From Anaerolineales bacterium (GTDB taxonomy: Bacteria; Chloroflexota; Anaerolineae; Anaerolineales; DRMV01): 64,000 bases of DNA. The stretch lies in the NCBI GenBank assembly GCA_027023425.1, contig JALVVL010000017.1, positions 12,942 to 76,941 of the forward strand. The letters run 5' to 3'. The position numbers and the translations under genes were made by a program. This document shows, in pieces, positions 14,424-38,996 of this stretch (within the stretch, counting starts at the first letter, position 1; each line of letters begins with the position of its first letter). The notes beneath the pieces were generated by a model that did no database searches, was not told where the DNA came from, and saw only the letters and a program-made list of their open reading frames with translations.

Positions 14424-14435
14424 CTTTCACCTCCC

Positions 14436-17822: not shown

Positions 17823-20800
17823 TCAACGGCCAAGCACAGTAAAAGCCGCGCCATCGGTGTTGCCGCGCACATCGGGGAAAAACGAATCCCACACCACAGC
17901 AGGGCGCGCCTTGAAAGTGCCCGGCGTGGCGGCGCGAGCGTAGTAAACCACCGTGTAAGTACCAGCGGGTAAGTGCATGGCATGAAATAGCACGTGGTCG
18001 TAGTAAACCTCGCGGTGCCCAAAGAACCAACCACCCCACCCGCAGCAACGGAATTTATCAAGCGAGTAATCTTCCTCATCAGGCAAGTACTCGGGGCGTT
18101 TCCCTGAAAGGGGCTCCAAACCAGCGGGCAGGTAATCCGTCAGCACCACGTTGTCCTCGGAATGAGGCACAACTACCGTGAGCCGAACTTGAACCAAATC
18201 ACCAACCTTGGCGGAAGTGACCGGATTATCAAGATCTGAGACAAGGTAATACGCCCTATCTACGCTGAAACCGGCGTAATGCGCCCTGGCTTCATCTGCC
18301 GGAAGGGTGAGTTCCAAATAAGCGGTGTAATAAAGCACCCCATCTCCCTTGCCGCGCTGAATGTCCAGGGTGGTCAACTTGCCCGCGGGCACACGCTTCT
18401 CATCCCAAGTGAGCACTTTGGGGGTCAAAAGGTCAGCCTGCGCCATGTGACCGCTCGTTGCCGGCTTGCCGCCAAGGAAAACGGCATAATCGTAGTTAGC
18501 CACCCCTTCGTGCGAAAAAGCCGCCCAATCGCTCAAGGTGCGCAAAATCGTTGAATCGCTCAAATCCGAGAGCCTCGGCGAGGAATTGTAGCGCCCGGCC
18601 AGCCACCGCACGGCATTCTGGAGGAACGGAGCGCGCGGGTCGGCCTTCAGCAAAGCATCCACCGCAAGCGCAGTGGCAGTAAGCGGTGAACTCCATCGCG
18701 ACCACCACGCGGCCTCGCCCTTATCCCAGTGAGCGGCAGAGGCGGAAACCGTAACGCTGTTCTCAAGCCGAGCGACTATTGGTTTGGTGAAGTCGGCGCC
18801 CATTTTGGCATTTTCGGCAGCGCGCAAAAGCATAGCCCAATCAGCCGTGTTTACCCTATCCGGCGGGGAATTCTTCATCTTCTTAGCAAGTTCGTAAACG
18901 AACGCCGAAACCGGCCTGCCGGAGCGCGCTAACACGTCTACAATGTAAACCTGGTCATCAAGGCTCAGGTACTTCCTTTGTTGAGGACGCACCAAAACCC
19001 TGCTCAGGTATTCGGCGGGTTGGGTAATTTGCGCCGAATCTACCGGAAAGCCAGCCGCTCGGGCTGCCTGAAGCGCATCAAGCGCATAGGCCGTCGGCAT
19101 AACCTCCGACTGGTCATCATCTACGCACCAACCCCAAGTCCCATCCGAGCGGCGGTAGTTCAGCAACGCCTGAAGGCGCTTCAGAGCATCGTCCTTCACC
19201 GGATCGTTTTTGGCGGCCTGCAAATTCAAAGAGGAACGCATCCGCAGAATAGCGACGTCTTTCAACAAGGCAAAAGCATTATAGGGAATGCACTCGGTTG
19301 GCTCTTCCGGCTTGACGCTAAGTTTGGAAGCCACGCTCGCTATCAACGACGCGGCCAAATTTACCCGCAAAGTGTAATGCTCGCCAGTGGGCGGTTGGAC
19401 GTACTCGCGCGCCGCCCCAACTTTTGGCAAAACTCCCGCAAGCCCGACCGTCTCCACAGTCTTGTAGGCAAAAACAGGTATTCCGCCATCGGGCAAAAGC
19501 GTGAGAACCGGTCGCGAAGCGTCGCGATAGCCATTAGCAACCGCTTGCACCTCCAAGTCCACGCGACGCGACGCAAGCGGCACTTCCACCTGCCAAGAAA
19601 CAACGGCTTGGCCTTTCGGCGGGACTTCCACTTTTTGCGAAAGCGGACTTTTCACCGACAAGCCCTTGGCCTTGCTTAGCGTCACCTCGGCGTTGAGCGG
19701 TTTGTCGGTGGAATTGTGCAACACAGCGCTCAAAGTAGCCTCATCGCCTGCAGTGAAAAACGCCGGGGTATGCAAGCGCACAAAGAACGGAAGCGCAACC
19801 TTCAACTCGGAAATCGCCGAGCCCACGCGGCTATCGGCGGTTATGGCGCGAGCGTGCATTACCCAAGTGGTCATGTTGTCGGGCAAAGTAATGCTAACCT
19901 CGGCCTCGCCTTGCTCATTGGTGCGGAGGTCGGCTTTCCAATAGGCCGTGTCGCGGAAAAGTTCACGCACTGTGATCACGCCGCCTTGGTCGGCGCCTTT
20001 GCCGCCGCCCCCCATACCCGACCCAGTGGGCAAAATGCGCATCGCCTTTAGGTTGTAACTCAGTTCATCTTGAGAAAGCGAAACGGTTGTAACCACCCGC
20101 AAAGCCCGCTCGGAGTACATTTTCTCCAACAAATTGTAGTTGTCGGGTGCAAGGGCGAGCAAGGCTTTATCAACCAATGCAAGCGAAACCTCGGCCGAAA
20201 CCGGCTTACCGGCATAGTCGGTAGTGCGCACTTTGAACTTGACCGTTTCACCCGGGGCGGCTTTCGGCTTTTCGGGCGTCACGGTCACATTCAAACGCTG
20301 GGCTTCCAGAGCAACCGGCAAGCGCAAAACGCCAAGGCGGTAATCGGGCGGCCTCTTGGCATCCCCACCGCTCACCTCAACCACCGAAACATAGGCAACC
20401 GGCGCCATCCACGGCTTTACTGGGAGGTCTACCGTGGTGCTCGGCGAATCAATTTTCAGCAAGCGGTAGGAGTAAATTTTGCCCCGCTCTTCCGTCATCA
20501 AAGCGTAAACGGGCGCGGAGAAGGGGCGCGTGACGACAATATGCGCCACGTCGCCGGGGCGGTAAGAGGCGCGGTCGGGAATCAGTGGCAAAGTTTTGGC
20601 TTCACTCTCACCCCACATCAGTGCCTCGTCGGCGCTCAACACCCAAACGCGCATAACGGCTTTGCGCTCGCGGCCGCTGTCATCGGCGGCGGTGGCAACA
20701 ATGCGGTATGTGCCCGCGTGGTCCGGGGTAAAACTTGCCTCGCCGCGGCCATCGGCGTTTGTGGTGAAATCGCCGAGGTCGGCAACCGGCACAACTTCCA

Positions 20801-23800
20801 GCGAATTTTCCCAGCGCAAAACACCAGAAGCATCCAGCCGCTGGACGCTGTGCCATTTTTCTTCAAACACGTCAAGATGCAGGGCGTGGTCGGCGAGCGG
20901 CTCTCCTTGCGGATTGAGCAACACAAAATCTATCCCAAGAGGTTGGTTGACAATACCAAGCCATGAATTGAGTTTCAGGCCGGGGTAAACATTGCTCACG
21001 CGAGAGACTAAAACCGTGTGTCCGTCAGCAGAGTTGCCGCCGCGGTCGGTAACGGTCGCCCAAACCGAAATCTGCTCGTCGCCGTTCTTGAGTTCCTGTG
21101 GGGCGCTCACCGAAAAGGTGAATTTGCCTTGCGCGTCCGTCTTGCCGGTGCCGTTTTGCGATGGGGCGCTGGCGGTGTGTCGCTCGGGCTCCCAATACCA
21201 CAGCCACGGCACGTCCGGCTCGGCGGAGAAAGTGTAGGCGCGGTAGGCGCGCGGCGGCGAGAAATAGAACGGCAGCGTAATCGCTTTCCACGACACATCG
21301 GCATCGGCAACGGCATCTCCGGCGTAGTAGGAAGCCTGCAACGAAACCTCACTTTTCTGTCCCGGCGCCACATCAGCCGGGTTGGGCATCAGCCTAACTT
21401 CAAAAACCGGCTTGTGGTAATTTGCAACGCGGATGAAGCGCGAGCCAAGCCTGGGCACATATTCGCTTTTGGCAGATTTTTGCTCAGGCAACACGTTCAG
21501 GTAATAACCACCCACCGGCGCAGAATCGGAAAGCAAAAAACTGCCATGAAATGTGCCGAGAGACGAAACGGAAACCGTCTGACGGTCTACAACCTTGCCC
21601 GCGTGGCTGAGCGAAACCACCACACGGGTATCGTGTGGAATGGTGTAGTGCAAATCGGCATCTTGACGCAAAATGCCCTTGAAGAAAATTTGCTGGCCCG
21701 GGCGGTACAGGGGGCGGTCGGTGTAGATGAAAGCCACTTTGGAGGAAGGGTTGGCGCCGCGAACATCCCAAAAAGAAATGCTACCGGGCGCTTGGTTGCG
21801 TGTCCAAGCGGCGCTGGCAATGGCAAAATGCTTCGCATCATGCACGAGAGCAAACAAAGGAGCGGACTCCAAGCCGTCAACCAAGGCCACGCCATCACCG
21901 TTGGTAACGGCTGAGCCACTCAACACCACCACCCTGCCTTCATCTTCGGTATCTTTGAGGGTATAAAAATTGACCTTCAGCCCCCCGACCGGCGCGCCAT
22001 CGCTCAGTCCCGTAGCCCAAGCGAGGGCGTTGGCCGGCGAAGCCTTGAAAGTCAAACTTTCGGTGGAAACGGCAATCTGGTAGTAATCAGTAGGCGAGGA
22101 ATACGCTCGCGCTGGCGACTGGGTTACTCCTAAGCAATAAGCCCCCGGCGCCAGCGAGTGACCAACCACTTTCGCAAGGTCAACCGTGAGGTAATGGAAG
22201 CGGCTATCCTTCTTGTCACTTAGGTCAACCCGCATTGAACCAAGCAATTTGGCATTAGGGTTATATTCAGGGTGGCAGACCTCCCAGTCCGCCAAATTGC
22301 TGAGCAAAGCCTGATCATCAAGCGAATACAGAGTGAAGGTGACAGAATCCAAGTTCGCATACCGCAAGTAGAAAATTTGCGGCTGGTCGGCGTGGAAAAT
22401 GCTCAACTGCCCAAGCAACAACGCATCGGCGCTCGGCTCAAGCGGGGCAGTCCTGAAAGTGAAGGTGATCGGAGCATCGGTTTGGTTTCCGTAAACATCG
22501 GCAATGCCGGGCGCAAAGGTCACGGTGTACTCAGTTGCGGGGTCAAAAATTCCTAAATGAACTTCGCGGCCATAAACCTCGTAAGAAATGCCATGCGTAG
22601 GCTCTGGCTGAACGGTTATGTGACCTTCAAGGCTCTTTTCGTCAATGAAAGTGTTAAATTCCACAAAAACCCAGGGCGAATAAACGTCCGAGGCGGTACT
22701 CGGCGTATCTTCAATCCACGGCTTGCCCACAGTGCGGAATTTGCCGTGCACCGGTTTTAGCAGGGCGCTGCCATCAGCCGCGCGGGCATCGGCGTTGACG
22801 CTGACCGTGTAGGTAGTAGCAAGGTCATAAAATTCGTCGGGCTTCAGAGTAAGAATGCTGTGGCTTGAATCCCATTCAGGCGTAAAGTGGGGCACATTTC
22901 CCCCATTAGGGGCCGTCACAACCACCGCCTTGTAGGCATCAGGATTCATTGGAGCGGAGAAGTAAATTTTTATCGGGGCTTTCAACGGGACATAGCGCGC
23001 CAAACCTCTGAGAATATCATCTCCCGAAACGTCAATTATGTTTACCACAACGCTTTCTGTATGAAAGCGCCAAGAAAAACCTTTAGGGAGCACATCCCCT
23101 TCAACCGTGCGCACCCCAGCAGGCAGGGAAACGAGGTAATCCGAGTTGCTCTTGAGGTGATGAGAAGGATGAAAGACGTAAACCGCGCTGCTAACCCAGC
23201 GGCCGCTTCCTTCAACGCTCGGAGTAATGCGAAGGGGCAACGGCGCCGTCGCCTTGTTCTGGGTCAAAGGCACCACCGGCTTGTTGAATACAATTGTGAT
23301 GTCGGCATTCACCGGCACGTTATCGCTGCCGTCAAGCGGGTAAGCCGCATTGACAGCAAAAGCCCGCGCGGTGACGTAGGTGAGGCTAAGGGGAGAAGCC
23401 AGCGAACCACCGTTTTTTGAACGCAAAGCGGTGGTAAATTCCGCGCGGTACTTAGCGCCATTTGGCTTTAGAGGCGTAGCAGGGGTAAAAACAAAAGTCA
23501 AATCATCGCGCCAACTCACCTTGCCCGGCACCGCTTGCCCTTTGGAATCGACAAAACGCCAAGCGGACTGCAGGCTTGCCCTGTCCAACGGCTGGTTGAA
23601 GGTGAAAGCAAGGGTTGGGCGGATGGGCAGAGCCGCAGCAGGCGCGGGTTCCGCGCGCACCAGCGCGAGCCCGCCTGCTTGGGGGGCAATTCGCGTGAAT
23701 GCAGGCATAGCAGTCGCTGTGGCGTGGGCTGCTGTCGGAGAAAGCACGCCGTTAACCGTTTTCCCCAACGATAGAGCGCAAGCAGTTAACGCAAGAGCAA

Positions 23801-23837
23801 AGAAAAAAATGAACAACCCTAAAAAAGACTTTCTCAT
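17823..23837 (-). CDS. alpha-2-macroglobulin family lipoprotein (thioester-less)
   Basis: Signal peptide with lipobox LALTAC, starting from ATG 23837 (gggagg RBS). N-terminal Ig-like modules and long MG-domain-like repeats. A TED-like region follows (LLNYRRSDGTWGWC, alpha/alpha-toroid type). The thioester position reads CIPY (19281-19292) rather than CxEQ. Confidence 0.85.
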   Translation of the reverse strand: MRKSFLGLFIFFFALALTACALSLGKTVNGVLSPTAAHATATAMPAFTRIAPQAGGLALVRAEPAPAAALPIRPTLAFTFNQPLDRASLQSAWRFVDSKGQAVPGKVSWRDDLTFVFTPATPLKPNGAKYRAEFTTALRSKNGGSLASPLSLTYVTARAFAVNAAYPLDGSDNVPVNADITIVFNKPVVPLTQNKATAPLPLRITPSVEGSGRWVSSAVYVFHPSHHLKSNSDYLVSLPAGVRTVEGDVLPKGFSWRFHTESVVVNIIDVSGDDILRGLARYVPLKAPIKIYFSAPMNPDAYKAVVVTAPNGGNVPHFTPEWDSSHSILTLKPDEFYDLATTYTVSVNADARAADGSALLKPVHGKFRTVGKPWIEDTPSTASDVYSPWVFVEFNTFIDEKSLEGHITVQPEPTHGISYEVYGREVHLGIFDPATEYTVTFAPGIADVYGNQTDAPITFTFRTAPLEPSADALLLGQLSIFHADQPQIFYLRYANLDSVTFTLYSLDDQALLSNLADWEVCHPEYNPNAKLLGSMRVDLSDKKDSRFHYLTVDLAKVVGHSLAPGAYCLGVTQSPARAYSSPTDYYQIAVSTESLTFKASPANALAWATGLSDGAPVGGLKVNFYTLKDTEDEGRVVVLSGSAVTNGDGVALVDGLESAPLFALVHDAKHFAIASAAWTRNQAPGSISFWDVRGANPSSKVAFIYTDRPLYRPGQQIFFKGILRQDADLHYTIPHDTRVVVSLSHAGKVVDRQTVSVSSLGTFHGSFLLSDSAPVGGYYLNVLPEQKSAKSEYVPRLGSRFIRVANYHKPVFEVRLMPNPADVAPGQKSEVSLQASYYAGDAVADADVSWKAITLPFYFSPPRAYRAYTFSAEPDVPWLWYWEPERHTASAPSQNGTGKTDAQGKFTFSVSAPQELKNGDEQISVWATVTDRGGNSADGHTVLVSRVSNVYPGLKLNSWLGIVNQPLGIDFVLLNPQGEPLADHALHLDVFEEKWHSVQRLDASGVLRWENSLEVVPVADLGDFTTNADGRGEASFTPDHAGTYRIVATAADDSGRERKAVMRVWVLSADEALMWGESEAKTLPLIPDRASYRPGDVAHIVVTRPFSAPVYALMTEERGKIYSYRLLKIDSPSTTVDLPVKPWMAPVAYVSVVEVSGGDAKRPPDYRLGVLRLPVALEAQRLNVTVTPEKPKAAPGETVKFKVRTTDYAGKPVSAEVSLALVDKALLALAPDNYNLLEKMYSERALRVVTTVSLSQDELSYNLKAMRILPTGSGMGGGGKGADQGGVITVRELFRDTAYWKADLRTNEQGEAEVSITLPDNMTTWVMHARAITADSRVGSAISELKVALPFFVRLHTPAFFTAGDEATLSAVLHNSTDKPLNAEVTLSKAKGLSVKSPLSQKVEVPPKGQAVVSWQVEVPLASRRVDLEVQAVANGYRDASRPVLTLLPDGGIPVFAYKTVETVGLAGVLPKVGAAREYVQPPTGEHYTLRVNLAASLIASVASKLSVKPEEPTECIPYNAFALLKDVAILRMRSSLNLQAAKNDPVKDDALKRLQALLNYRRSDGTWGWCVDDDQSEVMPTAYALDALQAARAAGFPVDSAQITQPAEYLSRVLVRPQQRKYLSLDDQVYIVDVLARSGRPVSAFVYELAKKMKNSPPDRVNTADWAMLLRAAENAKMGADFTKPIVARLENSVTVSASAAHWDKGEAAWWSRWSSPLTATALAVDALLKADPRAPFLQNAVRWLAGRYNSSPRLSDLSDSTILRTLSDWAAFSHEGVANYDYAVFLGGKPATSGHMAQADLLTPKVLTWDEKRVPAGKLTTLDIQRGKGDGVLYYTAYLELTLPADEARAHYAGFSVDRAYYLVSDLDNPVTSAKVGDLVQVRLTVVVPHSEDNVVLTDYLPAGLEPLSGKRPEYLPDEEDYSLDKFRCCGWGGWFFGHREVYYDHVLFHAMHLPAGTYTVVYYARAATPGTFKARPAVVWDSFFPDVRGNTDGAAFTVLGR

Positions 23838-23946
23838 CTTGGCCTCCCAGAGACATTGCAAAGTGAACAAACGTCACTTTGCCACAAAGCGTAAATAAAC
23901 ACAAAGATATCGCTAACGATATTGTACTCCAAATTCCAACCTGCAG

Positions 23947-26310: not shown

Positions 26311-26919
26311 TCACTCTCCCACTTCCCACACAACCGCATTCCTCGGCAGGCGCGGCGGCGGCACTGGGCTTTCGGCAGGATAGCCGATGAAAAGCATCCC
26401 CTGAGGCTCCCACGAAGCGGGCAAAGCAAGGGCGGCGCGCGTTTCGGCTTGCGCGTACAACGGCCAGCACACCCACACACTGCCCAAGCCCTCGGCATGG
26501 GCGGCAAGCATCAACTGCAATGCGAAGGCGGCGACTGACTGAACGGCCATCGTATGCTCAGGCGGAGCGTCGCGGCGTACAACATCCACATCGCGGTTTA
26601 GCAAAAGCGCCACCGGGGCTTCGTCCATGCGGCGGATTGAGCGGGCGACGCGCGCCTCAATCGCCTCCTTGTCCGCTCCCTCAGCCGCCATATCGCGGCG
26701 CATCCGCTCCGTGAGGGCAAAGGCAAGTTTGCGCTTGACCTCGGGCTTGCGCAGGAGCACAATCCGCCACGGCTGGAGGTTGTGCGCCGACGGAGCGTAA
26801 ATGCCGGTATCCAAAATCCGCTCCAGCACCTCATCGGGCACAGGCCGCGGCTGAAACTCGCGCACACTACGCCGCGAGCGCAAAAATTCGTGAAGAGCCT
26901 GCGAGGGTAATTTCGTCAT
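26311..26919 (-). CDS. nitroreductase-family FMN protein (FbiB C-terminal-domain-like)
   Basis: 202 aa with N-terminal RRSVREF and APSAHNLQPW motifs. gggagg RBS. It lies in a cluster with cofE and an F420-dependent reductase. Confidence 0.7.
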   Translation of the reverse strand: MTKLPSQALHEFLRSRRSVREFQPRPVPDEVLERILDTGIYAPSAHNLQPWRIVLLRKPEVKRKLAFALTERMRRDMAAEGADKEAIEARVARSIRRMDEAPVALLLNRDVDVVRRDAPPEHTMAVQSVAAFALQLMLAAHAEGLGSVWVCWPLYAQAETRAALALPASWEPQGMLFIGYPAESPVPPPRLPRNAVVWEVGE

Positions 26920-26934
26920 TCGGCAATCCTCCCG

Positions 26935-27654
26935 CTAAGCCTCAGCATCCGGCGGGTAAACCTCAAAGAGCAAAGATTCATCTTTCGGCCCGCGGTAAAC
27001 GCAAAGCCCAACGCGGGGAGAGTTGACAAACGGCAAAAAGGCGTTGGGCTTTTCCCAAGCCGGATGTTGGCGGGCATGTTCATCGCAATACGCCTCTTGA
27101 GGCCATGCGTCGGTGTAGAGCCATTCCGCAGGTTTGCCGCAGACGCGACAAGGCTTGAAAGGCTTGTAATTGCGCGCCAACAGCCTCACCCCGCCAGCCG
27201 GCACATCCCCCGAATATGCCGCAAGCGGCGTGACGCGCAAGACACTCGGCCAAACCTCATCGTAGGAATATTGCACCGTTTCGCCAACCGTGAGCACATC
27301 CTCAAGCGGCACATCCATCGGTTGGACATGGGCGTATTCGTCCAACACCAATTCCACGGGGGAAGGGTTGGGACGGCGGCCGTAAACCGCTTCGCCTATC
27401 GTGAACTGGCTATAATGCCCACAGCAGTCCACCCAAATGTGGCGGAGGTACTCGTCCAAATCTGCCAAGGTCGCCGAGCGGGGAATTTCCAGCGCCAGCC
27501 AGTAGATTTCGGGGAAGTAGTCGTCCTCAACGAAGATTAGAAACAGCGGCTCATCGCCCTGCTCACGCCCGCGACAGCCGAGCAGATGGGCTTTCATTTC
27601 ATCTTTGGAGAGGGAAGCGCCGCAAACGAAGCATTTGCCCGTTGTTGCTTGCAT
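26935..27654 (-). CDS. hypothetical protein, pRiA4b ORF-3-like fold with terminal Cys/His clusters
   Basis: The pattern LFLIFVEDDYFPEIYWLALEIPRSATLADLDEYLRHIW...GH.SQF...YG ... VQYSYDEVW resembles the PF07929-type family (from memory). It also carries CFVCG...C and CRVCG...CDEH. Confidence 0.4.
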   Translation of the reverse strand: MQATTGKCFVCGASLSKDEMKAHLLGCRGREQGDEPLFLIFVEDDYFPEIYWLALEIPRSATLADLDEYLRHIWVDCCGHYSQFTIGEAVYGRRPNPSPVELVLDEYAHVQPMDVPLEDVLTVGETVQYSYDEVWPSVLRVTPLAAYSGDVPAGGVRLLARNYKPFKPCRVCGKPAEWLYTDAWPQEAYCDEHARQHPAWEKPNAFLPFVNSPRVGLCVYRGPKDESLLFEVYPPDAEA

Positions 27655-27675
27655 AGTTCACCTCAGAGAGCGCGT

Positions 27676-28449
27676 TCAGCGGAAAAGGTCTTTTTCCCGC
27701 GGGCGGATGAGTTCGCGGAACGACGATTCACGAAGCGGATAAGGAAAACCGCGCACATGCACTGCGGGAATCGCTTCATCCGCCTGCCCCATCACCAGCG
27801 AAGCGGCGGCGGCGAGTTCGTCTGCCGCGCCAATTTGGGTGATGCGGAGTTCACGCCCGAGCAAGTCATACCTGCCGCGCAGGTCAACCAGCGCAGGCAC
27901 GCCGCTGACGCCAATGGCAACGCCCATTGTGCCCAAGCGCCAAGCCCGACCATGCGAATCATTGATTATCACACCAAGCCGCCTACCAGTGGCGGCTTCT
28001 AACCGAGAACGCAGGCGCGCCGCCGATTCATCGGGGTTTTCGGGCAAAAGGAGCACGCAGTCCTCGCTGCCGCAGGCGTTGGAATGATCAATACCCGCGT
28101 TGGCGCAGACAAAGCCGCGCTTGTGCTCCACAATCAACACGCCGGGCACGGCGCGGAGCACCTCTGCACTTTCGCGCAAAATCAATTCCACCAAGCGCGG
28201 GTCTTTTTGGGTAAGCGCCGCCAACTCCCGCGCTTTGGGTGAAGGGGAGACGGCGTTCAAATCCACCATGCGGCCTTCGGCGCGCGAGACAATTTTCTGC
28301 GCCACCACGACCACATCGCCGTCGCGCCACAAAACGCCGGAGCGCTCCGCGGCTCCCAAAATCAGCGCCGCGAGGTCATCTCCCCTTTCCACCAAGGGAA
28401 TGCCAAGGAGCGGCGTGAGCACAAGCGGTTGGGGATGCCGCGCCGTCAC
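27676..28449 (-). CDS. cofE: coenzyme F420-0:L-glutamate ligase CofE
   Basis: Motifs GIPLVERGDDLAALI, VVVAQKIVSRAEGR and FVCANAGIDHSN. Its GTG start overlaps the upstream stop (GTGA). Confidence 0.85.
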   Translation of the reverse strand: MTARHPQPLVLTPLLGIPLVERGDDLAALILGAAERSGVLWRDGDVVVVAQKIVSRAEGRMVDLNAVSPSPKARELAALTQKDPRLVELILRESAEVLRAVPGVLIVEHKRGFVCANAGIDHSNACGSEDCVLLLPENPDESAARLRSRLEAATGRRLGVIINDSHGRAWRLGTMGVAIGVSGVPALVDLRGRYDLLGRELRITQIGAADELAAAASLVMGQADEAIPAVHVRGFPYPLRESSFRELIRPREKDLFR

Positions 28450-29114
28450 GATTGCCCCAATCCGACTATACGAACCCCCGCGGATTTTGCGCCGTAGGCT
28501 TTGTTGATGTAAATCAAGAGGCTGGTCAAGCCCTCCACAACGGGGGTATTTTCAATTGGGCCGGCGTCAATTGGGCGAAATCCTGCGGCTTCAACCAATT
28601 CCATCACGCGGCGGCGGTTTGCCTTGCCCCTGCCCGCCACCAAAACATCGTGGTCGGAAGGTTCGCCTTCCCAAAGCACGCCGTGGGCGATGTTTTGGAA
28701 CGCGTCCACCACCGCTACATCGTCGCCGAGGATTTGCTGTGCTTCAAGGGCGGCGCTTCCGGCTTCAGGCAGCCAAACTTTGGTAACTTTGGGGGGCTTT
28801 AGCGGCACGGTAACGTCCACCAAAATTTTGCCGTGGAGGGCATCGCGGACGGCTTCCAGCGTGGTGCGATGGGCGGCGTAAGGCACGGTGAGGATTACGA
28901 TTTCGCCGCGGAGCGCGGCTTCGTAGTTTTCAGCGCCGAAAACGGGGGCGTCGGGGTTGCCCAAGCGGGTGCGGATGGCATCCGCAGCGGAGCGAGCGCG
29001 TTCAAGGCTCCGAGAGCCGATGTAAATTGTGTAGCCCGCCTTTGCCCAACGGTAAGCCAGCCCGCCACCCTCGCGCCCAGTCCCCCCGAGGATTGCCAAA
29101 ACCGGTTTGGTCAT
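28446..29114 (-). CDS. npdG: NADPH-dependent F420 reductase (NpdG/Fno family)
   Basis: Rossmann motif LAILGGTGREGGGLA, a 222-aa size typical of the family, and a ggagg RBS. Confidence 0.8.
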   Translation of the reverse strand: MTKPVLAILGGTGREGGGLAYRWAKAGYTIYIGSRSLERARSAADAIRTRLGNPDAPVFGAENYEAALRGEIVILTVPYAAHRTTLEAVRDALHGKILVDVTVPLKPPKVTKVWLPEAGSAALEAQQILGDDVAVVDAFQNIAHGVLWEGEPSDHDVLVAGRGKANRRRVMELVEAAGFRPIDAGPIENTPVVEGLTSLLIYINKAYGAKSAGVRIVGLGQS

Positions 29115-30536: not shown

Positions 30537-33464
30537 CTACCGCACCGCCACCAGCACCGCCCGCACCATCCGGCGGAAGGGATAGTCTCCCGTGGCCGGG
30601 TCGTAGCCCTCACAAGTCACTAAGGTCAGAACATCATACTTTTCATGCTTCAACAGCATGTGGTGCGCCGCCCAACTTCGCGCCGATAAGCGCTTGTTCT
30701 CCCGCACTTCGTACACATACACCCGACCCCAGGCGTGGATTTCAATCCGGTCGCCATAGCGCAGGTCTTTGAGGTGCAGGAACGGCCCCGGGGTATTGTC
30801 CGCGTTCCACACATGCGCCGTCAGCACCGTGTTCCCGGCCCAAGTGGGGAAGGCCGTACCTTCCAACCAGCCCACTGCATTACCCAACCACGACACATCC
30901 CAGCCATTTTCCGTCAGGGGCACGCCCACGATGGGCAGGCCAAGCCCCAAGGATGGAATCGTCAGCCGCATGTCCATCCCAGCATAGGCTTTAGTGGCCG
31001 GCTGCTGCGGCAAAGTCGTGACCACCCCGCGCGGGAAACCGGTTTTAGGCGGCGCGGGATGTTGCACCACAAAATCATAGATGCTGTCATGGCCGCCGTT
31101 GAGGTGGTTGCCTACAAGATCAGTGATGGACGTAGTGCCGCACACGAAGAGGCGATAGGTGCCGTCAGGCAGGGGCACACCGTTGTTGATATGCGCCGTG
31201 GCCGTGAAGGTGGCGCTGTCGTAGGTCACGCTGTTCACGGTGATTCGGGTATCGTCGGCCTGCACACCGCCTGCGCAGGAGACGGTATCAAAAGCATCGT
31301 TCTTCCCCCGTTCCACCAGCAGGTAGTTGGCCGGATTGGTCACATCGTTGGGGCCGGTGTTGCCCGGCGGGTCATTCACGGCCTCGCTGAAATGCACTTG
31401 GAACGAAGTGAAACCTTGGGTGTAAGCAGAAGTTACAGGGGGACTGACAACTGTGGGCCCAGCCGCATCGTAAGTAACCGTATTGTCGGTGCTGGTGCTG
31501 GCATTGTTGGGGTTGCCGTCCCAATCAGCCACGCGGTTGGCCGCAATGGAAGCCGTCACGGTGCCCGCACCGCTCATACCGCTGACGGCGATATCAAAAG
31601 TCGTATGGTCATAAGGGCTAATCTCGGTAACAGTCGCCGAAAGTGTACCCGAGACTGTACCGCCCAAAGTAACATCAGAGGCATCAAAGGTTGCCGGATC
31701 CACAAAGGGAGTAAATACCGCTGTGAAATGGATGGGGCCTACGTTGGTCGGGTCGGGTTGAGTGGCGGCCTGATTCACGGTCACAGTAAGGGGTGCACGA
31801 CGCACTTCATAAGCCCCAATGTCGCAATGGCTGCCCTGGGGGCGGGCCACGCCGCGCTGGTCGGTGGACGGGCATTCATTGTCCGCCCCGGCGTCTATGG
31901 CGGGAGAGCCAGATTTGAGCGGAAAGACTTGCCGTCCAGGGCCTCCAAAGTCGGTGAGCGCACCTAATTGAGGGTCTTTGCCAATGATGTTGCCGTTGAC
32001 ACCGTCAGTTAAGCCGCAAGCGTGGGCACTGTCCTCAATCAGATTATGGCTTGAAGTATCAGCAATAGCGCTATTAGGGCCGAAGTTGACACAATCTCCA
32101 CCAGAACCGCTGTTGGCGATAATAACATTGATGAGCACTGGCTTGCTTTGGCCGGAGTTGTACATCCCATCACCATCACCACCGTGGGCCGAATTGTTAG
32201 AGAAGGTGACGTTTGTCAATACAGGGCTGCTGTCAAAATTTTCGATACCCCCACCATAATCATAGGCTGAATTACCAAAAAACGTGACGTTCGTCAGTCT
32301 GGGGTTGCTCTTGTAGTTGGAGAGCCCGCCTCCGCTGCCGAATAGTAAGAAATCAGTAAAGAAGCCAACCGCCGCATTGTGCATGAAGGTTACGTTCGTT
32401 AAAACAGGGCTACCCTCAACGCTAAGCATCCCACCACCAAAAGCGGCAGAATTCCCGGAGAAGGTCACATCTGTCAGTGTAAGGCTGCCGCCGTAATTGG
32501 AAATCCCGCCCCCATCACCATCGCCATAAACCGAATTTCCGGAGAAAGTCACATTTTTTAGGGTAAGGTTACTGCCGCCACTGGCTATTCCGCCGCCGTC
32601 ATAGAGGGCGTCATTATTGGAAAAGATAACATTTGTCAATTGAGGGCTTCCCCCACCGATGATCATCCCGCCGCCCGCCTCCTCGGCCTCGTTGCGGGAA
32701 AAGGTAACTTCCGTCAAAATAGGACTGCCCTCCTCTTCATACATCCCGCCGCCATCAAGGTAGGCGTGGTTATCAGAGAAAGTCACATGCGTAAGTTTAT
32801 GGCTACTGTAAACGCTGAAGATTCCGGCGCCATCGTAGGCCAAATTGCCAGAGAAGGTGACGTTCCGCAGCGTAAGGCTGCTGTGCTCGCTGTGTAGCCC
32901 GCCGCCCTCGCGTTTGGGGGAATAAAAATCTTCATCATTAGCCTGTCCCGCGGTGATAGTGAAGCCGTCCAGCACGGCGCCGTTGTTCACATGGATAGCG
33001 GTAAGGACATGATAAGCGTTGTTCCCAGCGAGGTCCAGAATGCTGGTGACCACACCGTGGGCATCGGTGGTGTCATTTTGGTCAATGTCCCCGCTGAGGA
33101 CAGTGATGTTGTGCTCTGGGTCGCGCTGGTCGCGGGCGGTTTCCGTGCCCGCGAAGCCGCCGTAAAGCGCCACCCCGTTCTTGAGCCGGAAGGTGCTGTT
33201 GCGGTCATCATTCGTCTGCCCGGCGCCTTCGTCCGGGTAGTACACGCCGGCTGCCACCCAAATTTCGGTGCAGCCGGCGTCGGCCAGCGCGTCCTGCAAG
33301 GTGGTGTAGGCATCGGCCCAACTGGTACCGTTGTTGGCACCGGTAGCGTCGGCCTTCACATAACAAATCGGCCCGGCCGCGCGCACCGCCGGTGCGGGCA
33401 ACAGGGCCAAGATGACGCTCAACACGAGCGCCGCACGGATCAGGCGTTGGAAAAAGGTTTGCAT
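30537..33464 (-). CDS. secreted parallel-beta-helix (Pmp/PbH1-like) protein with Ig-like modules and a C-terminal sortase domain, paralogue 1
   Basis: Signal peptide from MQTFFQRLIRAALVLSVILALLPAPAVRAAG. About 10 units of the L(T/K)NVTFSGNSA..GGG type, then DQRGVARPQGSHCDIGAYE. C-terminal His (VLTAH), Cys (TLVTC, 30612-30614) and Arg (PFRRMV), with sortase-like spacing of 67 and 13 aa. PPKTGF lies at 31035-31052. Confidence 0.8.
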   Translation of the reverse strand: MQTFFQRLIRAALVLSVILALLPAPAVRAAGPICYVKADATGANNGTSWADAYTTLQDALADAGCTEIWVAAGVYYPDEGAGQTNDDRNSTFRLKNGVALYGGFAGTETARDQRDPEHNITVLSGDIDQNDTTDAHGVVTSILDLAGNNAYHVLTAIHVNNGAVLDGFTITAGQANDEDFYSPKREGGGLHSEHSSLTLRNVTFSGNLAYDGAGIFSVYSSHKLTHVTFSDNHAYLDGGGMYEEEGSPILTEVTFSRNEAEEAGGGMIIGGGSPQLTNVIFSNNDALYDGGGIASGGSNLTLKNVTFSGNSVYGDGDGGGISNYGGSLTLTDVTFSGNSAAFGGGMLSVEGSPVLTNVTFMHNAAVGFFTDFLLFGSGGGLSNYKSNPRLTNVTFFGNSAYDYGGGIENFDSSPVLTNVTFSNNSAHGGDGDGMYNSGQSKPVLINVIIANSGSGGDCVNFGPNSAIADTSSHNLIEDSAHACGLTDGVNGNIIGKDPQLGALTDFGGPGRQVFPLKSGSPAIDAGADNECPSTDQRGVARPQGSHCDIGAYEVRRAPLTVTVNQAATQPDPTNVGPIHFTAVFTPFVDPATFDASDVTLGGTVSGTLSATVTEISPYDHTTFDIAVSGMSGAGTVTASIAANRVADWDGNPNNASTSTDNTVTYDAAGPTVVSPPVTSAYTQGFTSFQVHFSEAVNDPPGNTGPNDVTNPANYLLVERGKNDAFDTVSCAGGVQADDTRITVNSVTYDSATFTATAHINNGVPLPDGTYRLFVCGTTSITDLVGNHLNGGHDSIYDFVVQHPAPPKTGFPRGVVTTLPQQPATKAYAGMDMRLTIPSLGLGLPIVGVPLTENGWDVSWLGNAVGWLEGTAFPTWAGNTVLTAHVWNADNTPGPFLHLKDLRYGDRIEIHAWGRVYVYEVRENKRLSARSWAAHHMLLKHEKYDVLTLVTCEGYDPATGDYPFRRMVRAVLVAVR

Positions 33465-33683: not shown

Positions 33684-36587
33684 CTACCGCACCGCCACCA
33701 GCACCGCCCGCACCATCCGGCGGAAGGGGTAGTCTCCCGTGGCCGGGTCGTAGCCCTCGCAGGTCACTAAGGTCAGAACATCATACTTTTCATGCTTCAA
33801 CAGCATGTGGTGCGCCGCCCAACTTCGTGCCGGTAAGCGCTTGTTCTCCCGCACTTCGTACACATACACCCGGCCCCAGGCGTGGATTTCAATCCGGTCG
33901 CCATAGTGCAGGTCTTTGAGGTGCAGGAACGGCCCCGGGGTATTGTCCGCGTTCCACACATGCGCCGTCAGCACCGTGTTCCCGGCCCAAGTGGGGAAGG
34001 CCGTACCTTCCAACCAGCCCACTGCATTACCCAACCACGACACATCCCAGCCATTTTCCGTCAGGGGCACGCCCACGATGGGCAGGCCAAGCCCCAAGGA
34101 TGGAATCGTCAGCCGCATGTCCATCCCAGCATAGGCTTTAGTGGCCGGCTGCTGCGGCAAAGTCGTGACCACCCCGCGCGGGAAACCGGTTTTAGGCGGC
34201 GCGGGATGTTGCACCACAAAGTCATAGATGCTGTCATGGCCGCCGTTGAGGTGGTTGCCCACAAGATCAGTGATGGACGTAGTGCCGCACACGAAGAGGC
34301 GATAGGTGCCGTCAGGCAGGGGCACACCGTTGTTGATGTGCACCGTGGCCGTGAAAGTGGCGCTGTCGTAGGTCACGCTGTTCACGGGGATTCGGGTGTC
34401 GTCGGCCTGCACACCGCCTGCGCAGGAGACGGTATCAAAAGCATCGTTCTTCCCCCGTTCCACCAGCAGGTAGTTGGCCGGGTTGGTCACATCGTTGGGA
34501 TCGGTGTTACCGGGCGGGTCATTCACGGCCTCGCTGAAATGCACTTGGAACGAAGTGAAACCTTGGGTGTAAGCAGAAGTTACAGGGGGACTGACAACTG
34601 TAGGCCCAGCAGCATCGTAAGTAACCGTATTGTCGGTGCTGGTGCTGGCATTGTTGGGGTTGCCGTCCCAATCAGCCACGCGGTTGGCCGCAATGGAAGC
34701 CGTCACGGTGCCCGCACCGCTCATACCGCTGATGGCGATATCAAAAGTCGTATGGTCATAAGGGCTAATCTCGGTAACAGTCGCCGAAAGTGTACCCGAG
34801 ACTGTACCGCCCAAAGTAACATCAGAGGCTTCAAAGGTTGCCGGATCCACAAAGGGGGTAAATACCGCTGTGAAATGGATGGGGCCTACGTTGGTCGGGT
34901 CGGGTTGAGTGGCGGCCTGATTCACGGTCACAGTAAGGGGTGCACGACGCACTTCATAAGCCCCAATGTCGCAATGGCTGCCCTGGGGGCGGGCCACGCC
35001 GCGCTGGTCGGTGGACGGGCATTCATTGTCCGCCCCGGCGTCTATGGCGGGAGAGCCAGATTTGAGGGGAAAGACTTGCCGTCCAGGGCCTCCAAAGTCG
35101 GTGAGCGCACCTAATTGAGGGTCTTTGCCAATGATGTTGCCGTTGACACCGTCAGTCAGACCGCAGGCATGGGCACTGTCTTCAATCAAGTTGTGGCCTG
35201 AATTCGTGGAGATCGTGGCATTAGAGTCATTGGCGCAATCCCCGCCGGAAGGACTGTTCGCGATGATAACGTTGGTCAGTACGGGAGTGCTGTTGCCCCC
35301 ATTGAAGATCCCACCGCCGTTATTAGCTGAATTATCAGAGAATGTCACGTTAGTTAATACAGGACTGCTGTCGTAATTACCACTATAGGTGTAGAATCCA
35401 CCGCCATTACCATACGCCGAATTGCCAGAAAAGGTGACGTTCTTCAATATAGGACTTCTGTGATAACTATAGTTGTAAATTCCTCCTCCATCTTCGTAAA
35501 GAGCCGAATTGTCAGAAAAAGTGACATTTATGAGAAATAGCCCGCCATCATTGTTAAACAAGCCACCACCCCCATAATACGCCGAGTTATTCGTGAAAAT
35601 AACCTCCCTCAATGTGGGGTTACCCCAAAAGTTGTACATCCCCCCGCCATCAGTGATCTCAGCCGAATTGCCGGAGAAAGAAACGCCTATCAGTATAGGA
35701 TTGCCAGAGTCATTATACATCCCACCCCCTTCATAAGCCAAATTATCTGAGAAGGTCACATTCGTCAGCTTAAGACTACTTTCAATACTATACACCCCAC
35801 CACCAGCGCCGTTATGAGCAGAGTTGCTCCCAAAAGTAACGTCTACCAGCGTAGGATTACCACCCCAAATGTACATTCCCCCACCGCTGCGGTTAGCTGA
35901 ATTATTAGAGAAAGTAATGTGTGTTAACGTGGGAGTGCCATTATTATTGTATATCCCACCCCCATCATAAGCCAAGTTGCCGGCAAAGGTAACATCCCGC
36001 AGTGTAGGGTCGCTGCGATTGTTGTACATCCCGCCACCCACGCTATTGGGATAATTTCCATTGGCCTGTCCGGCGGTAATAATGACACCGTCTAGGATAG
36101 TGCCGCTGTATGCCCCGCTGCCGGTGACCACATGGTAAGCGTTACCCCCACTGATGTTGTTGGTGTCAACGACCACACCGTGGGCATCGGTGGTGTCATT
36201 TTGGTCAATGTCCCCGCTGAGGACGGTGATGTTGTGCTCTGGGTCGCGCTGGTCGCGGGCGGTTTCCGTGCCCGCAAAGCCACCGTAAAGTGCCACGCCG
36301 TTCTTGAGCCGGAAGGTGCTGTTGCGGTCGTCGTTCGTCTGCCCTGCGCCTTCATCCGGGTAGTACACGCCGGCTGCCACCCAGATTTCGGTGCAGCCGG
36401 CGTCGGCCAGTGCGTCCTGCAAGGTGGTGTAGGCGTCGGCCCAACTGGTGCCGTTGTTGGCACCGGTAGCGTCGACCTTCACGTAACAAATTGGCCCGGC
36501 CGCGCGCGCCGCGGGCGCGGGCAACAGGGCTAAGATGACGCTCAACACGAGCGCCGCACGGATCAGGCGTTGGAAGAAAGTGTTCAT
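33684..36587 (-). CDS. secreted parallel-beta-helix protein with C-terminal sortase domain, paralogue 2
   Basis: Same architecture as 30537-33464, starting at MNTFFQRLIRAALVL (ATG 36587). The last ~495 aa differ from paralogue 1 at only 7 positions. PPKTGF lies at 34182-34199 and the TLVTC Cys codon at 33759-33761. Confidence 0.8.
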   Translation of the reverse strand: MNTFFQRLIRAALVLSVILALLPAPAARAAGPICYVKVDATGANNGTSWADAYTTLQDALADAGCTEIWVAAGVYYPDEGAGQTNDDRNSTFRLKNGVALYGGFAGTETARDQRDPEHNITVLSGDIDQNDTTDAHGVVVDTNNISGGNAYHVVTGSGAYSGTILDGVIITAGQANGNYPNSVGGGMYNNRSDPTLRDVTFAGNLAYDGGGIYNNNGTPTLTHITFSNNSANRSGGGMYIWGGNPTLVDVTFGSNSAHNGAGGGVYSIESSLKLTNVTFSDNLAYEGGGMYNDSGNPILIGVSFSGNSAEITDGGGMYNFWGNPTLREVIFTNNSAYYGGGGLFNNDGGLFLINVTFSDNSALYEDGGGIYNYSYHRSPILKNVTFSGNSAYGNGGGFYTYSGNYDSSPVLTNVTFSDNSANNGGGIFNGGNSTPVLTNVIIANSPSGGDCANDSNATISTNSGHNLIEDSAHACGLTDGVNGNIIGKDPQLGALTDFGGPGRQVFPLKSGSPAIDAGADNECPSTDQRGVARPQGSHCDIGAYEVRRAPLTVTVNQAATQPDPTNVGPIHFTAVFTPFVDPATFEASDVTLGGTVSGTLSATVTEISPYDHTTFDIAISGMSGAGTVTASIAANRVADWDGNPNNASTSTDNTVTYDAAGPTVVSPPVTSAYTQGFTSFQVHFSEAVNDPPGNTDPNDVTNPANYLLVERGKNDAFDTVSCAGGVQADDTRIPVNSVTYDSATFTATVHINNGVPLPDGTYRLFVCGTTSITDLVGNHLNGGHDSIYDFVVQHPAPPKTGFPRGVVTTLPQQPATKAYAGMDMRLTIPSLGLGLPIVGVPLTENGWDVSWLGNAVGWLEGTAFPTWAGNTVLTAHVWNADNTPGPFLHLKDLHYGDRIEIHAWGRVYVYEVRENKRLPARSWAAHHMLLKHEKYDVLTLVTCEGYDPATGDYPFRRMVRAVLVAVR

Positions 36588-36722: not shown

Positions 36723-37649
36723 ATGCCCCAGAGTGCGCCTCCCTCTAAAGAACCATTGGCTCCATACCTTCCTGCCATCACCCAGAGGGTATTCTCACCC
36801 GTGTCACCGCCGTTGAAGTGGGCTGGGGGGAAAGCGGCTTTGCTCCCGCAAATGCGAAAGCACTTTCCCGAAGTTTTTGGGCGTTACCATGAGCCGTTTC
36901 TTGGAGGCGGGGCAGTATTTTTTTATTTATCCCCGCAACGCGGCGCTAAGGCTTTTCTCTCTGACCTCAACGAAGAACTCATCAATTTTTACCTTGTGCT
37001 TCGTGAGCAGGTGGATGATTTACTCAAGGAAGTGCGGGCATTGCACGAAACTTACCTCCGGCTTGGCGAAACAGAACGCGAGAAATTGTATTATGAATGG
37101 CGCAACGCCGACCGCACTCCGGAATTCAAAAAATGGTCTCCCTTGCGGCGGGCAGTTAGGTTTTATTTCCTCAACAAAACCGCCTTCAACGGTCTTTATC
37201 GTATCAACCGACAAGGCTTGTTCAATGTACCGTGGGGTGGATACAAACGCCCCGCGCTTTACCGCCCACAATTGTTGCGCGATGCCGCGGCTGTTTTGCG
37301 AAAGTTTGCCGTTTTTCTAAAAGCCACATCGTTTGAAATTGTGTTGGACAACGCCCAAAGCGGCGATTTTGTCTATTTTGACCCTCCCTATGCGCCTGTA
37401 TCAGCGACGGCATCCTTCACCACCTACACTTCAGGCGGTTTTGGAGAGGCAGAACAACGGCATCTGGCGAGCGTATGCCACGAGTTAGACCGCCGCGGCG
37501 TCATGTTTTTGCTTTCCAACAGCGATTTGCCGTGGGTGCGAGCGCTCTACACGGGCTTTGCTGTATTCACCGTGCAGGCTCGCCGCAATATCAACAGCAA
37601 AGGCGACAAACGGGGCCCGGTCAATGAAATTCTCGTGCGCAATTACTGA
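36723..37649 (+). CDS. Dam-family (alpha-class, D12) N6-adenine DNA methyltransferase
   Basis: N-terminal LKWAGGKAALLPQM, motif I EPFLGGGAVFF, and catalytic DPPY (37380-37391). Confidence 0.85.
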   Translation: MPQSAPPSKEPLAPYLPAITQRVFSPVSPPLKWAGGKAALLPQMRKHFPEVFGRYHEPFLGGGAVFFYLSPQRGAKAFLSDLNEELINFYLVLREQVDDLLKEVRALHETYLRLGETEREKLYYEWRNADRTPEFKKWSPLRRAVRFYFLNKTAFNGLYRINRQGLFNVPWGGYKRPALYRPQLLRDAAAVLRKFAVFLKATSFEIVLDNAQSGDFVYFDPPYAPVSATASFTTYTSGGFGEAEQRHLASVCHELDRRGVMFLLSNSDLPWVRALYTGFAVFTVQARRNINSKGDKRGPVNEILVRNY

Positions 37650-37664
37650 AACAGGAGCATCGCA

Positions 37665-38996
37665 ATGACCCAACGCGACAAAGCATGGGAAGCCATTTTT
37701 GAGGGGGAGCACATTCCACAAACGCTGGAGAAGCAAGGCTGGGCAACGATCACGACAGAGGTCATCCGCAAAAAGTATCACAAAGAACCACGGCTTTTAG
37801 CAAAAACCGATGCCTATGAGGCGCTTCCCGAAGTGTTCCGCAAAAACGACGCGGCGCTGCTTTCGCTGACTAATGAAGAGTATGCCATCCTCCGCTTAGG
37901 GAACAAAGGCAAACCTCTTTTTCCGAAACTGCCGCCTGTGATTGGCAGGCCGACGCATATACTCATTGAAGATTGCGCTCGGCGTATCGTGACCCTGCCG
38001 TGGGAGGAACATTTCACCAGCGAGTCTCAAGCCATTGATGCCGCACTGGCGGCACACATTTTACAGAATTTTGTGGGCGACGAAAGACTTGTGCTCACTA
38101 TACGGGGGCGAAGGTGGTTTCAGAAATCCTTGCCTCTGCGTTTCTCACTCAAAGGCAGGGTGACCGAGTTTCCTTTGAAAGCGCGCGGTTTCCAAATAGA
38201 GGTGGACGGGGGCTATGAGTCTCCCCGCCATGTGTACCTTCTGGAAGCCAAAAACAAAGCCCACAAAACTTTCAACTTGCGACAGGTAATGTTTCCCTAC
38301 CTATTTTGGAAAGATTATCTACGCGGGCGAAATACCACTAAAACCGTCCGTCCCATTTACATGGTTTACACCGCGCACAATTATTTCCTCTACGAATTCA
38401 CCGTAGAAAAAGAAGATGTGCTCAACTCGCTTCATGTTGTGCGCGCAGGATGGTATGTGCTTGGTGCACCGCCGCTAACCTTAGCCTACATTAGAGAAAT
38501 AGTGCAAACTCACACACCGGCAGATGTTCGGAATGTTCCGTTTCCTCAGGCCGACTCGTTCCTGCGGCTGTATGATATTTTGGAGGAAGTCAAACGCAAA
38601 GGTGCGCTCACTGCAAACGAGATTGCCGAACACCAAGAGTTTACCCTGCGTCAGGGCAACTATTATGCCTCGGCAGCGCGATGGCTTGGCTGGCTGGGAA
38701 AACGGGGAAACGCTTTCGTAATCAGCAAGGATGGCAAGAGGCTTTTGGCCTCTGCCCTCAACGAAAGGCCAAGGCTGATTTTGCAACGGCTGGCACAGCG
38801 CCCGGTTTTCCACGAGGCGCTGCAGTGGTGGGCAACCACTGCCAAATTGCCCACAAAGGGGCAAATTGAACAATGGATTGTTCAAGCCATTGAGAGCAAA
38901 CAGATCAAAGCGCTATCCCAAAGCACCATTCCGCGTCGGGCGAGCACCGTCGCCGGATGGCTCCAAATCCTTGCCGCATGGGTGCGAACACCATGA
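37665..38996 (+). CDS. putative restriction endonuclease (PD-(D/E)xK core) with C-terminal helix-rich, wHTH-like region
   Basis: Motif FQIEVD(181)GGY...12 aa...LLE(194)AK(196) at 38205-38252. It starts 16 nt after the methylase stop with an acaggagc RBS. I recognise no family, so the call rests on the motif plus its position next to the methylase. Confidence 0.5.
   Translation: MTQRDKAWEAIFEGEHIPQTLEKQGWATITTEVIRKKYHKEPRLLAKTDAYEALPEVFRKNDAALLSLTNEEYAILRLGNKGKPLFPKLPPVIGRPTHILIEDCARRIVTLPWEEHFTSESQAIDAALAAHILQNFVGDERLVLTIRGRRWFQKSLPLRFSLKGRVTEFPLKARGFQIEVDGGYESPRHVYLLEAKNKAHKTFNLRQVMFPYLFWKDYLRGRNTTKTVRPIYMVYTAHNYFLYEFTVEKEDVLNSLHVVRAGWYVLGAPPLTLAYIREIVQTHTPADVRNVPFPQADSFLRLYDILEEVKRKGALTANEIAEHQEFTLRQGNYYASAARWLGWLGKRGNAFVISKDGKRLLASALNERPRLILQRLAQRPVFHEALQWWATTAKLPTKGQIEQWIVQAIESKQIKALSQSTIPRRASTVAGWLQILAAWVRTP

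Follow-up and report, generated by a model that had tools for sequence, protein, structure and literature searches.

We analyzed a 64,000-nucleotide stretch of an Anaerolineales genome (contig JALVVL010000017.1; the whole stretch is hereafter called the window), focusing on two tandem genes, gene 1 and gene 2, whose products end in a sortase domain directly preceded by a sequence resembling an LPxTG sorting signal. We propose that this signal and the enzyme that follows it may form a self-processing sorting cassette.

The tandem gene pair and its motif-sortase junction

Gene 1 occupies positions 30537 to 33464 of the minus strand, on which all features of the pair lie, and encodes 975 amino acids plus a stop codon. 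Gene 2 (33684 to 36587; 967 amino acids plus a stop codon) is its tandem paralogue and shares its architecture. Identical calls of both genes are found in scaffold_283 of the public metagenome assembly ENA ERZ23491667. The order of elements in both proteins is a signal peptide, PMP/right-handed beta-helix repeats, a choice-of-anchor Q domain, immunoglobulin (Ig)-like domains, the hexapeptide PPKTGF, a 23-residue connector and the sortase. The Sec signal peptide of gene 1 is predicted at 33378-33464, with a cleavage site between MQTFFQRLIRAALVLSVILALLPAPAVRA and AG suggested by the AxA pattern, and that of gene 2 is predicted from hydropathy at 36501-36587. The choice-of-anchor Q domain of gene 1 (31803-31976) matched NF041518 with 84 bits, the cut-off being 25.

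The PPKTGF sequence is located at 31035-31052 in gene 1 and at 34182-34199 in gene 2, and the bond between T and G is the presumed scissile bond. The junction between motif and sortase reads ...VVQHPAPPKTGFPRGVVTTLPQQPATKAYAGMDMRLTIPSLG... in both copies. The connector, which spans the 23 residues from the motif to strand beta1 and is predicted to be ordered, is PRGVVTTLPQQPATKAYAGMDMR in gene 1 (30966-31034) and is conserved in gene 2 (34113-34181). It leads into a sortase barrel at 30540-30965 in gene 1, with the catalytic His at 30813-30815, Cys at 30612-30614 (within TLVTC) and Arg at 30573-30575, and at 33687-34112 in gene 2, with His at 33960-33962, Cys at 33759-33761 and Arg at 33720-33722. 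The first-pass annotation of this DNA had already placed PPKTGF directly before a fused sortase at these positions; this is confirmed, the motif lying 23 residues upstream of a barrel with an intact triad.

In the window proteins some 165 residues separate the motif from the C-terminus, compared with about 35 in a canonical sorting signal, and the motif reads PPKTG where the family consensus is LPxTG. Since both proteins stop at the last barrel strand, they have no C-terminal membrane anchor. The signal peptide is the sole strongly hydrophobic segment of the gene 1 protein (Kyte-Doolittle peak 2.16); the next peak, at 1.38, lies within the sortase barrel. The same scan of the window proteins detected no hydrophobic segment after the motif, 1.38 being the top value there. 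Where a canonical sorting signal would continue with a membrane-spanning segment and a basic tail, the window copies have the connector and barrel.

The identity between the two paralogues is a mosaic, amounting to about 93% over residues 1-150, 45-55% over residues 150-450 (the PMP/beta-helix repeats) and about 99% from residue 500 to the end; over the last 1440 nucleotides of the pair, 1415 are identical. The pattern suggests either gene conversion of the flanks or a diversification limited to the repeat region.

Conservation of the motif and distribution of the family

A [LIVP]PxTG pentapeptide is expected by chance about 0.06 times in some 1000 residues (a rough estimate), and a lone occurrence is not significant. 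The two PPKTG sites are the only [LIVP]PxTG sequences among all open reading frames (ORFs) of at least 150 amino acids in the window. A search with the last 208 residues as query gave 297 homologues, most of them with Chloroflexi or Anaerolineae labels; of those that reach far enough upstream, nearly all have a canonical LPxTGF at the matching site. Aligning 76 homologues showed no exception at P, T and G and 97% conservation of F; the first position is occupied by L (59), I (9), V (3), N (3) or P (2), both P belonging to the window copies. Among genomic copies from different species, xPxTGF is present in 81 of 83. The distance between xPxTGF and the GTAFPTW block is fixed at 62-65 residues, both in the genomic copies and in 147 representatives that are pairwise at most 50% identical; 143 of these representatives carry xPxTGF and 4 carry LPxSGF.

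The broadest comparison comprised 312 distinct modules, in which the motif residues P, T, G and F are retained in 307, 304 (plus 5 with Ser), 310 and 305 cases, respectively, and the catalytic His, Cys and Arg in 312, 310 and 312. The conservation of the motif is indistinguishable from that of the catalytic residues. This family-wide conservation places the motif far beyond chance, and the conservation at the exact junction, on which the first-pass annotation had staked its interpretation, was thus upheld. Position 1 can be L, I, V, M, N, A, S or P in the 312 modules, most homologues having the canonical LPxTG. To judge from these alignments, such variation is like that of real sorting signals, and the residues needed for recognition and scission (P, T and G) hardly vary. 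Moreover, motif and enzyme are seldom lost apart from each other, as only one Cys-to-Tyr replacement and about 8 degenerate motifs were found among the 312 modules; the protein with the replaced catalytic Cys (P0099) retains the motif LPATGF.

The connector is also conserved, its consensus after the motif Gly being F-[AP]-P-G-x-V-T-x-L-P-x-Q-P-x-x-K-A-Y. An invariant lysine or another obvious acceptor was sought in the conserved Ig-like domain and in the connector and was not found there, the Lys of K-A-Y being present in just 58%. Two homologues carry a repeated motif: in P0002 the motif and half of the connector are tandemly duplicated (LPSTGFRHGEVTQLPKQPAA occurring twice), and P0119 has two motifs in succession (LPETGF...LPKTGF).

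The family is large. At least 582 genomic copies were confirmed with one genome per species, and a profile search of 1.84 billion representatives gave at least 1521 clusters at 50% identity with a threshold of E ≤ 1e-30. The best 78 loci all belong to Chloroflexota, mostly to Anaerolineales, and include the cultured species Leptolinea tardivitalis and Ornatilinea apprima. The module forms the extreme C-terminus in every one of the top 150 representatives (at most 50% identical), in proteins of 280 to 2735 amino acids. Most family proteins have an N-terminal signal peptide that looks cleavable, with AxA sites, and not like a signal anchor. The passengers between signal peptide and module are unrelated sets of the adhesin type, namely DUF285, malectin with InlB-B repeats, PMP beta-helix, cadherin with HYDIN-Ig, Big_5 and Big_12, and some are as short as 70-100 amino acids behind the signal peptide. 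The unrelatedness of these passengers indicates a portable C-terminal module, placed where such proteins normally bear a sorting signal. The choice-of-anchor domain of the window proteins points the same way.

The gene neighbourhoods of the 78 loci and of the window were compared by all-against-all ORF clustering. No conserved partner gene, whether a second sortase, an acceptor or a pilin, was detected in them, the recurrent clusters being the fusion gene itself and its antisense shadow ORFs. Similarly, no separate sortase was found in these loci or in the window, where the hidden Markov model of the module matched nothing but fragments of family members. We also considered natural split forms, in which passenger and sortase would be encoded by separate genes, and rejected them, as the short matches are contig-truncated genes or decayed remnants. 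Examples are a remnant behind a his operon (L081, 5262-5777), which lacks signal peptide and passenger and has TC(E) deleted, and an ORF in which the barrel is reduced to its C-terminal half and follows immediately on a signal peptide (L037, 5428-5826). Many genomes carry multiple copies of the fusion gene, and tandem pairs are present in 5 of the 78 loci (L011, L012, L013, L016 and L023), so that duplication recurs, though in a minority only. One locus, L025, from an Anaerolineales genome, encodes on its minus strand (14344-14886) a 180-residue protein in which an N-terminal membrane segment is combined with a textbook sorting signal, ...ALPNTGF-ADDVGAPGLIIAALALVIVIFLV-RRLRSAPAR, located 4 kb from a fusion gene of 2892 amino acids. 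It is the only protein found with a canonical LPNTGF, transmembrane segment and basic tail in about 1.1 Mb of loci.

Several other genes of the window can be mentioned. Adjoining gene 2 on the plus strand (36723-38996) are a D12-class N6-adenine DNA methyltransferase gene and, behind it, a gene for a DUF6996/DUF6997/DUF7226 protein, which may together constitute a restriction-modification pair. About 7 kb from the gene pair, the minus strand (17823-23870) encodes a very large secreted protein, a bacterial alpha-2-macroglobulin of 2015 amino acids with MG2, bait region, A2M, bMG10 and four Big_5 domains. A cofactor F420 cluster is located at 26311-29114 (minus strand) and consists of genes for a nitroreductase-family protein, a Cys-rich protein of 239 amino acids without a Pfam hit, F420-0:gamma-glutamyl ligase and F420-dependent NADP oxidoreductase.

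Structure prediction, classification and specificity signals

AlphaFold2 models of the module had a mean predicted local distance difference test (pLDDT) score of 90. Residues 41-60 of the window module reached 93-95, and in the homologue P0039 the LPATGFAPGx block scored 96 versus 63 for the ten residues preceding it. The motif is therewith predicted to be an ordered part of the sortase module, with a hinge immediately upstream. What had been described in the first-pass annotation as a loose Pro/Thr-rich linker is instead a conserved segment of 23 residues, predicted to be ordered (pLDDT 93-96).

The nearest solved relatives, both by profile and by fold, are the class C pilin sortases, and Foldseek gave a probability of 1.00 to many sortase structures. 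In the profile alignment to chain 24rr_A, LPxTGF and the DPF of the class C lid are offset by no more than about 3 residues, and the spacing from the aromatic residue to the "IP" motif of beta1 is 25-26 residues in both the family module and class C. In crystal structures, the lids of class C enzymes (DP[FYW]) superimpose on the LPAT substrate bound in the groove, and they are known to serve as pseudo-substrates (PMC3493515). Given this known binding of class C lids, a segment at the equivalent position can reach the active site in cis, and we infer from the predicted order and the sequence position of the motif that it probably occupies the active-site groove of its own barrel.

Both window copies belong to the sortase superfamily (PF04203, peptidase C60), the Pfam Sortase model matching with 65.5 bits (residues 850-988) and 64.0 bits, above the gathering score of 26.6, and the His, Cys (in TLxTC) and Arg being present in both. 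None of the class-level NCBIfam models reaches its cut-off with the window domains: the scores are 40.8 and 39.3 bits for class C (cut-off 160), 42 for class F (166), 30.6 for class E (160), 27.7 for class D (165) and 18-20 for class GN (TIGR03784; 158), and those for classes A and B are likewise below the cut-offs. The three hallmarks of class C are all missing, namely the DP[F/W/Y] lid, the C-terminal transmembrane anchor and, in the 78 loci and the window, a pilin gene cluster. What the window copies do possess is xPxTGF 62-65 residues before GTAFPTW, the connector, a C-terminal sortase with intact triad and a signal peptide, the set of features by which we define an "autosortase".

Pro at position 1 is rare and is found also in the closest orthologue, that of L001, a 91%-identical Anaerolineales metagenome-assembled genome. 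Three of the six motif codons differ between the window and L001, all of them synonymously, and the ratio of nonsynonymous to synonymous substitution rates (dN/dS) of the module is 0.14. Because Pro was kept through synonymous changes at such a ratio, PPKTGF is best regarded as a maintained lineage variant of the family motif [L/I/V]-P-x-T-G-F and not as the result of decay. A 3-residue insertion in the beta6/beta7 loop of the window lineage was considered as a counterpart of the Pro and rejected, as P0200 has a similarly long loop with a canonical Leu.

Additionally, covariation was analyzed between the motif and the enzyme. The strongest covariation of motif position 1 is with a residue of the beta6/beta7 loop (z = 5.6), a pair that ranks 17th among about 14,500; next come a second residue of this loop, position 47, and residues beside the catalytic Cys and His. 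In SrtA and SrtB, it is the beta6/beta7 loop that sets the selectivity at this position of the substrate. An NPxTGF sub-clade (including P0041, P0053 and P0075) has its own beta6/beta7 loop, T-x-W-L-T-K/R-H-E, as well as TCQQ after the catalytic Cys, a pattern that resembles a coupled shift in the specificity of signal and enzyme. VPxTGF is accompanied by Met at loop position 138.

Proposed self-processing, its alternatives and comparison with known systems

The observed architecture and conservation are what a self-processing cassette would predict, and we regard it as somewhat probable that the last ~170 residues, comprising signal, ordered connector and barrel, are a self-contained, single-use sorting cassette, for which we use the name "autosortase". 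According to this proposal, the protein would be exported by the Sec pathway and its N-terminal signal peptide removed. The [L/I/V/P]-P-x-T-G-F segment would then be docked on the barrel of the same chain, at the place of the class C lid and presumably within the groove. As in other sortases, the catalytic Cys would attack the T-G bond, which would convert the passenger of about 790 residues into a thioacyl adduct and leave an enzyme starting with Gly-Phe. Finally, an amine would resolve the thioester, so that the passenger would become covalently attached and the spent enzyme released; candidate amines are those of a peptidoglycan stem peptide, of a lysine in another envelope protein or of a further subunit. 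Each passenger would thus bring its own enzyme, in replacement of the membrane anchor of the canonical signal and of the separate membrane sortase.

The self-processing put forward in the first-pass annotation is thereby supported in part. In its favour are the retention of motif and enzyme in one chain, the diversity of the passengers and the lack of both an anchor and a partner gene. Its further suggestion, that neighbouring copies process each other reciprocally in trans, received no specific support, given that tandem pairs are confined to 5 of the 78 loci and that the catalytic Cys is nearly never lost (one Tyr in 312 modules). A near-universal catalytic Cys is an argument that no chain can do without an active enzyme of its own. 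If processing in trans sufficed, dead enzymes should be tolerable in genomes with multiple copies, and their rarity favours a requirement for action in cis.

Several points weigh against this proposal. The position of the motif at the lid fits an uncleaved pseudo-substrate equally well, and after cleavage in cis the new Gly N-terminus, tethered beside the thioester, could simply be re-ligated. The LPNTGF protein of L025, with its transmembrane segment and RRLR tail, indicates that conventional sortase substrates exist in this group of bacteria, presumably together with a trans-acting enzyme. We know of no characterised sortase that accepts Pro at position 1, the residue found in the window copies. 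The covariation of position 1 collapses to a few independent events under coarse clustering, and for this reason it suggests a contact without proving it.

Among the alternative explanations, a mere chance likeness of the window PPKTG to LPXTG has in its favour that a single such pentapeptide in about 1000 residues is not improbable and that its first residue is not Leu. It is refuted by the family alignments, with position-specific conservation over hundreds of diverged homologues and preservation through synonymous changes in L001, and we attach practically no weight to it. Alternatively, the motif could be a conventional sorting signal processed by a separate, membrane-bound housekeeping sortase, in which case the fused domain would have another role or none. 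The canonical LPxTGF signals in the group do imply some trans-acting enzyme, but the family proteins have no membrane-retention segment after the motif, the domain keeps each of His, Cys and Arg in at least 310 of 312 modules and is under purifying selection, the fixed spacing and ordered connector are not needed by a foreign enzyme, and the 78 loci and the window contain no separate sortase; we consider this explanation highly improbable. An auto-inhibitory lid deserves more attention, although it too appears unlikely to us. The LPxTGF segment would here be a pseudo-substrate, uncleaved or reversibly cleaved, the enzyme would act in trans on other proteins, such as those with a canonical LPxTGF, transmembrane segment and tail, and the N-terminal part would be a stalk or targeting region that places the secreted sortase in the envelope. 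The closest structures and profiles are of class C, the motif aligns to the lid region, lids are documented as pseudo-substrates (PMC3493515), and the L025 fusion gene has a protein with a canonical sorting signal in its vicinity. A lid, however, needs no scissile T-G bond, and class C lids have none, whereas in the family P, T and G vary no more than the triad does. The supposed stalks are unrelated adhesin-type sets of 70 to 2,500 residues, typical of sortase cargo and not of an enzyme scaffold; the N-termini resemble cleavable AxA signal peptides and not signal anchors; and the ~1.1 Mb of loci offered a single canonical substrate.

The chain could also cleave itself at the T-G bond and have its thioester resolved by water, which would amount to autoproteolytic maturation or release with no transpeptidation. 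This explanation shares the evidence of architecture and conservation with the cassette proposed above. If a nucleophile is lacking, sortases hydrolyse the acyl intermediate, and no acceptor was identified in the neighbourhood of the 78 loci and the window. On the other hand, an entire sortase fold with an invariant Arg would be a costly means for a single cut, adhesin-like passengers normally need anchoring, and proteins with a choice-of-anchor domain usually have an anchoring signal at their end. We therefore consider simple hydrolysis improbable, more so than a lid. Returning to the self-processing cassette, its fullest form would be a sorting mode of the Anaerolineae that has not been described, in which a disposable C-terminal sortase converts an LPxTG in cis into a thioester, in a Hedgehog-like manner, and the passenger is ligated to an amine of the envelope or of a foreign molecule. 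We give this fuller version a little less than an even chance. The acceptor could then be the cell wall, the filament sheath, another subunit (giving covalent polymers) or even the surface of a substrate (giving covalent adhesion).

The chemistry would be of the known sortase type; it is the organisation, fused, without anchor and with one enzyme per substrate, that appears to be undescribed. No description of a natural sortase-LPXTG fusion was found in the full-text literature, in which only engineered ones are reported, most subscription journals lying outside the search. The database names of the family proteins are just "sortase" or "LPXTG-site transpeptidase family protein". If self-processing is confirmed, it would represent a third autoprocessing logic for the delivery of passengers, beside HINT domains and autotransporters, and it would explain how proteins come to decorate the envelope, still poorly understood, of the monoderm filamentous Chloroflexota. 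Self-processing would also provide a compact, genetically encoded cassette of ~170 amino acids for self-catalysed, site-specific protein ligation, that is, a portable self-ligating tag, of which natural specificity variants (LPxTGF, NPxTGF, VPxTGF and PPxTGF) would be at hand.

To our knowledge, sorting by sortases has always been described as a two-component process with a membrane-anchored enzyme and membrane-retained substrates; the present family, unlike these descriptions, joins the substrate signal and the enzyme in one secreted chain. With canonical sortase/LPXTG sorting (classes A-F, C60) it shares the beta-barrel, the His-Cys-Arg residues (with TLxTC and an Arg in the last strand) and an [L/I/V]PxTG near the C-terminal end of secreted adhesin-like proteins. 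It differs in that the signal is followed by the enzyme where a transmembrane helix and basic tail would stand, in that this enzyme lacks its own membrane anchor, and in that the domain scores about 42 bits where the cut-offs of the NCBIfam classes are 160-166. The class C sortases also have a loop just N-terminal to beta1 that is placed on the barrel, as predicted for the family, but their lid is a DP[FWY] without a scissile bond whereas the family segment is a true LPxTG, and they have a C-terminal membrane anchor and pilin clusters, both of which the family lacks. The class C lid may be a degenerate relative of a true substrate segment acting in cis. A one-to-one relation of sortase and substrate is known also from the Gram-negative pairs of one enzyme and one target (TIGR03784, "class GN / marine sortase"), as the TIGRFAMs entries place the target gene adjacent to the enzyme gene; there, however, the two are encoded by separate genes.

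Engineered sortase-LPXTG fusion tags such as BISOP cleave themselves, and the reaction is therefore feasible within a fusion (PMC2901362). Unlike the family, these tags are artificial, have the enzyme N-terminal to the site, so that it retains the tag, and release the cargo with a new Gly N-terminus (PMC2901362), whereas in the family the site precedes the enzyme, so that the cargo would be the acyl donor. By analogy only, the proposed logic is also that of Hedgehog/intein (HINT) domains and type V autotransporters, in which a C-terminal domain of the same chain, by way of a (thio)ester, passes the passenger to a nucleophile and is discarded. Fold and chemistry of the HINT domains are unrelated to those of the sortases, and their Cys is situated at the scissile bond, while the Cys of the family lies about 140 residues downstream of it.

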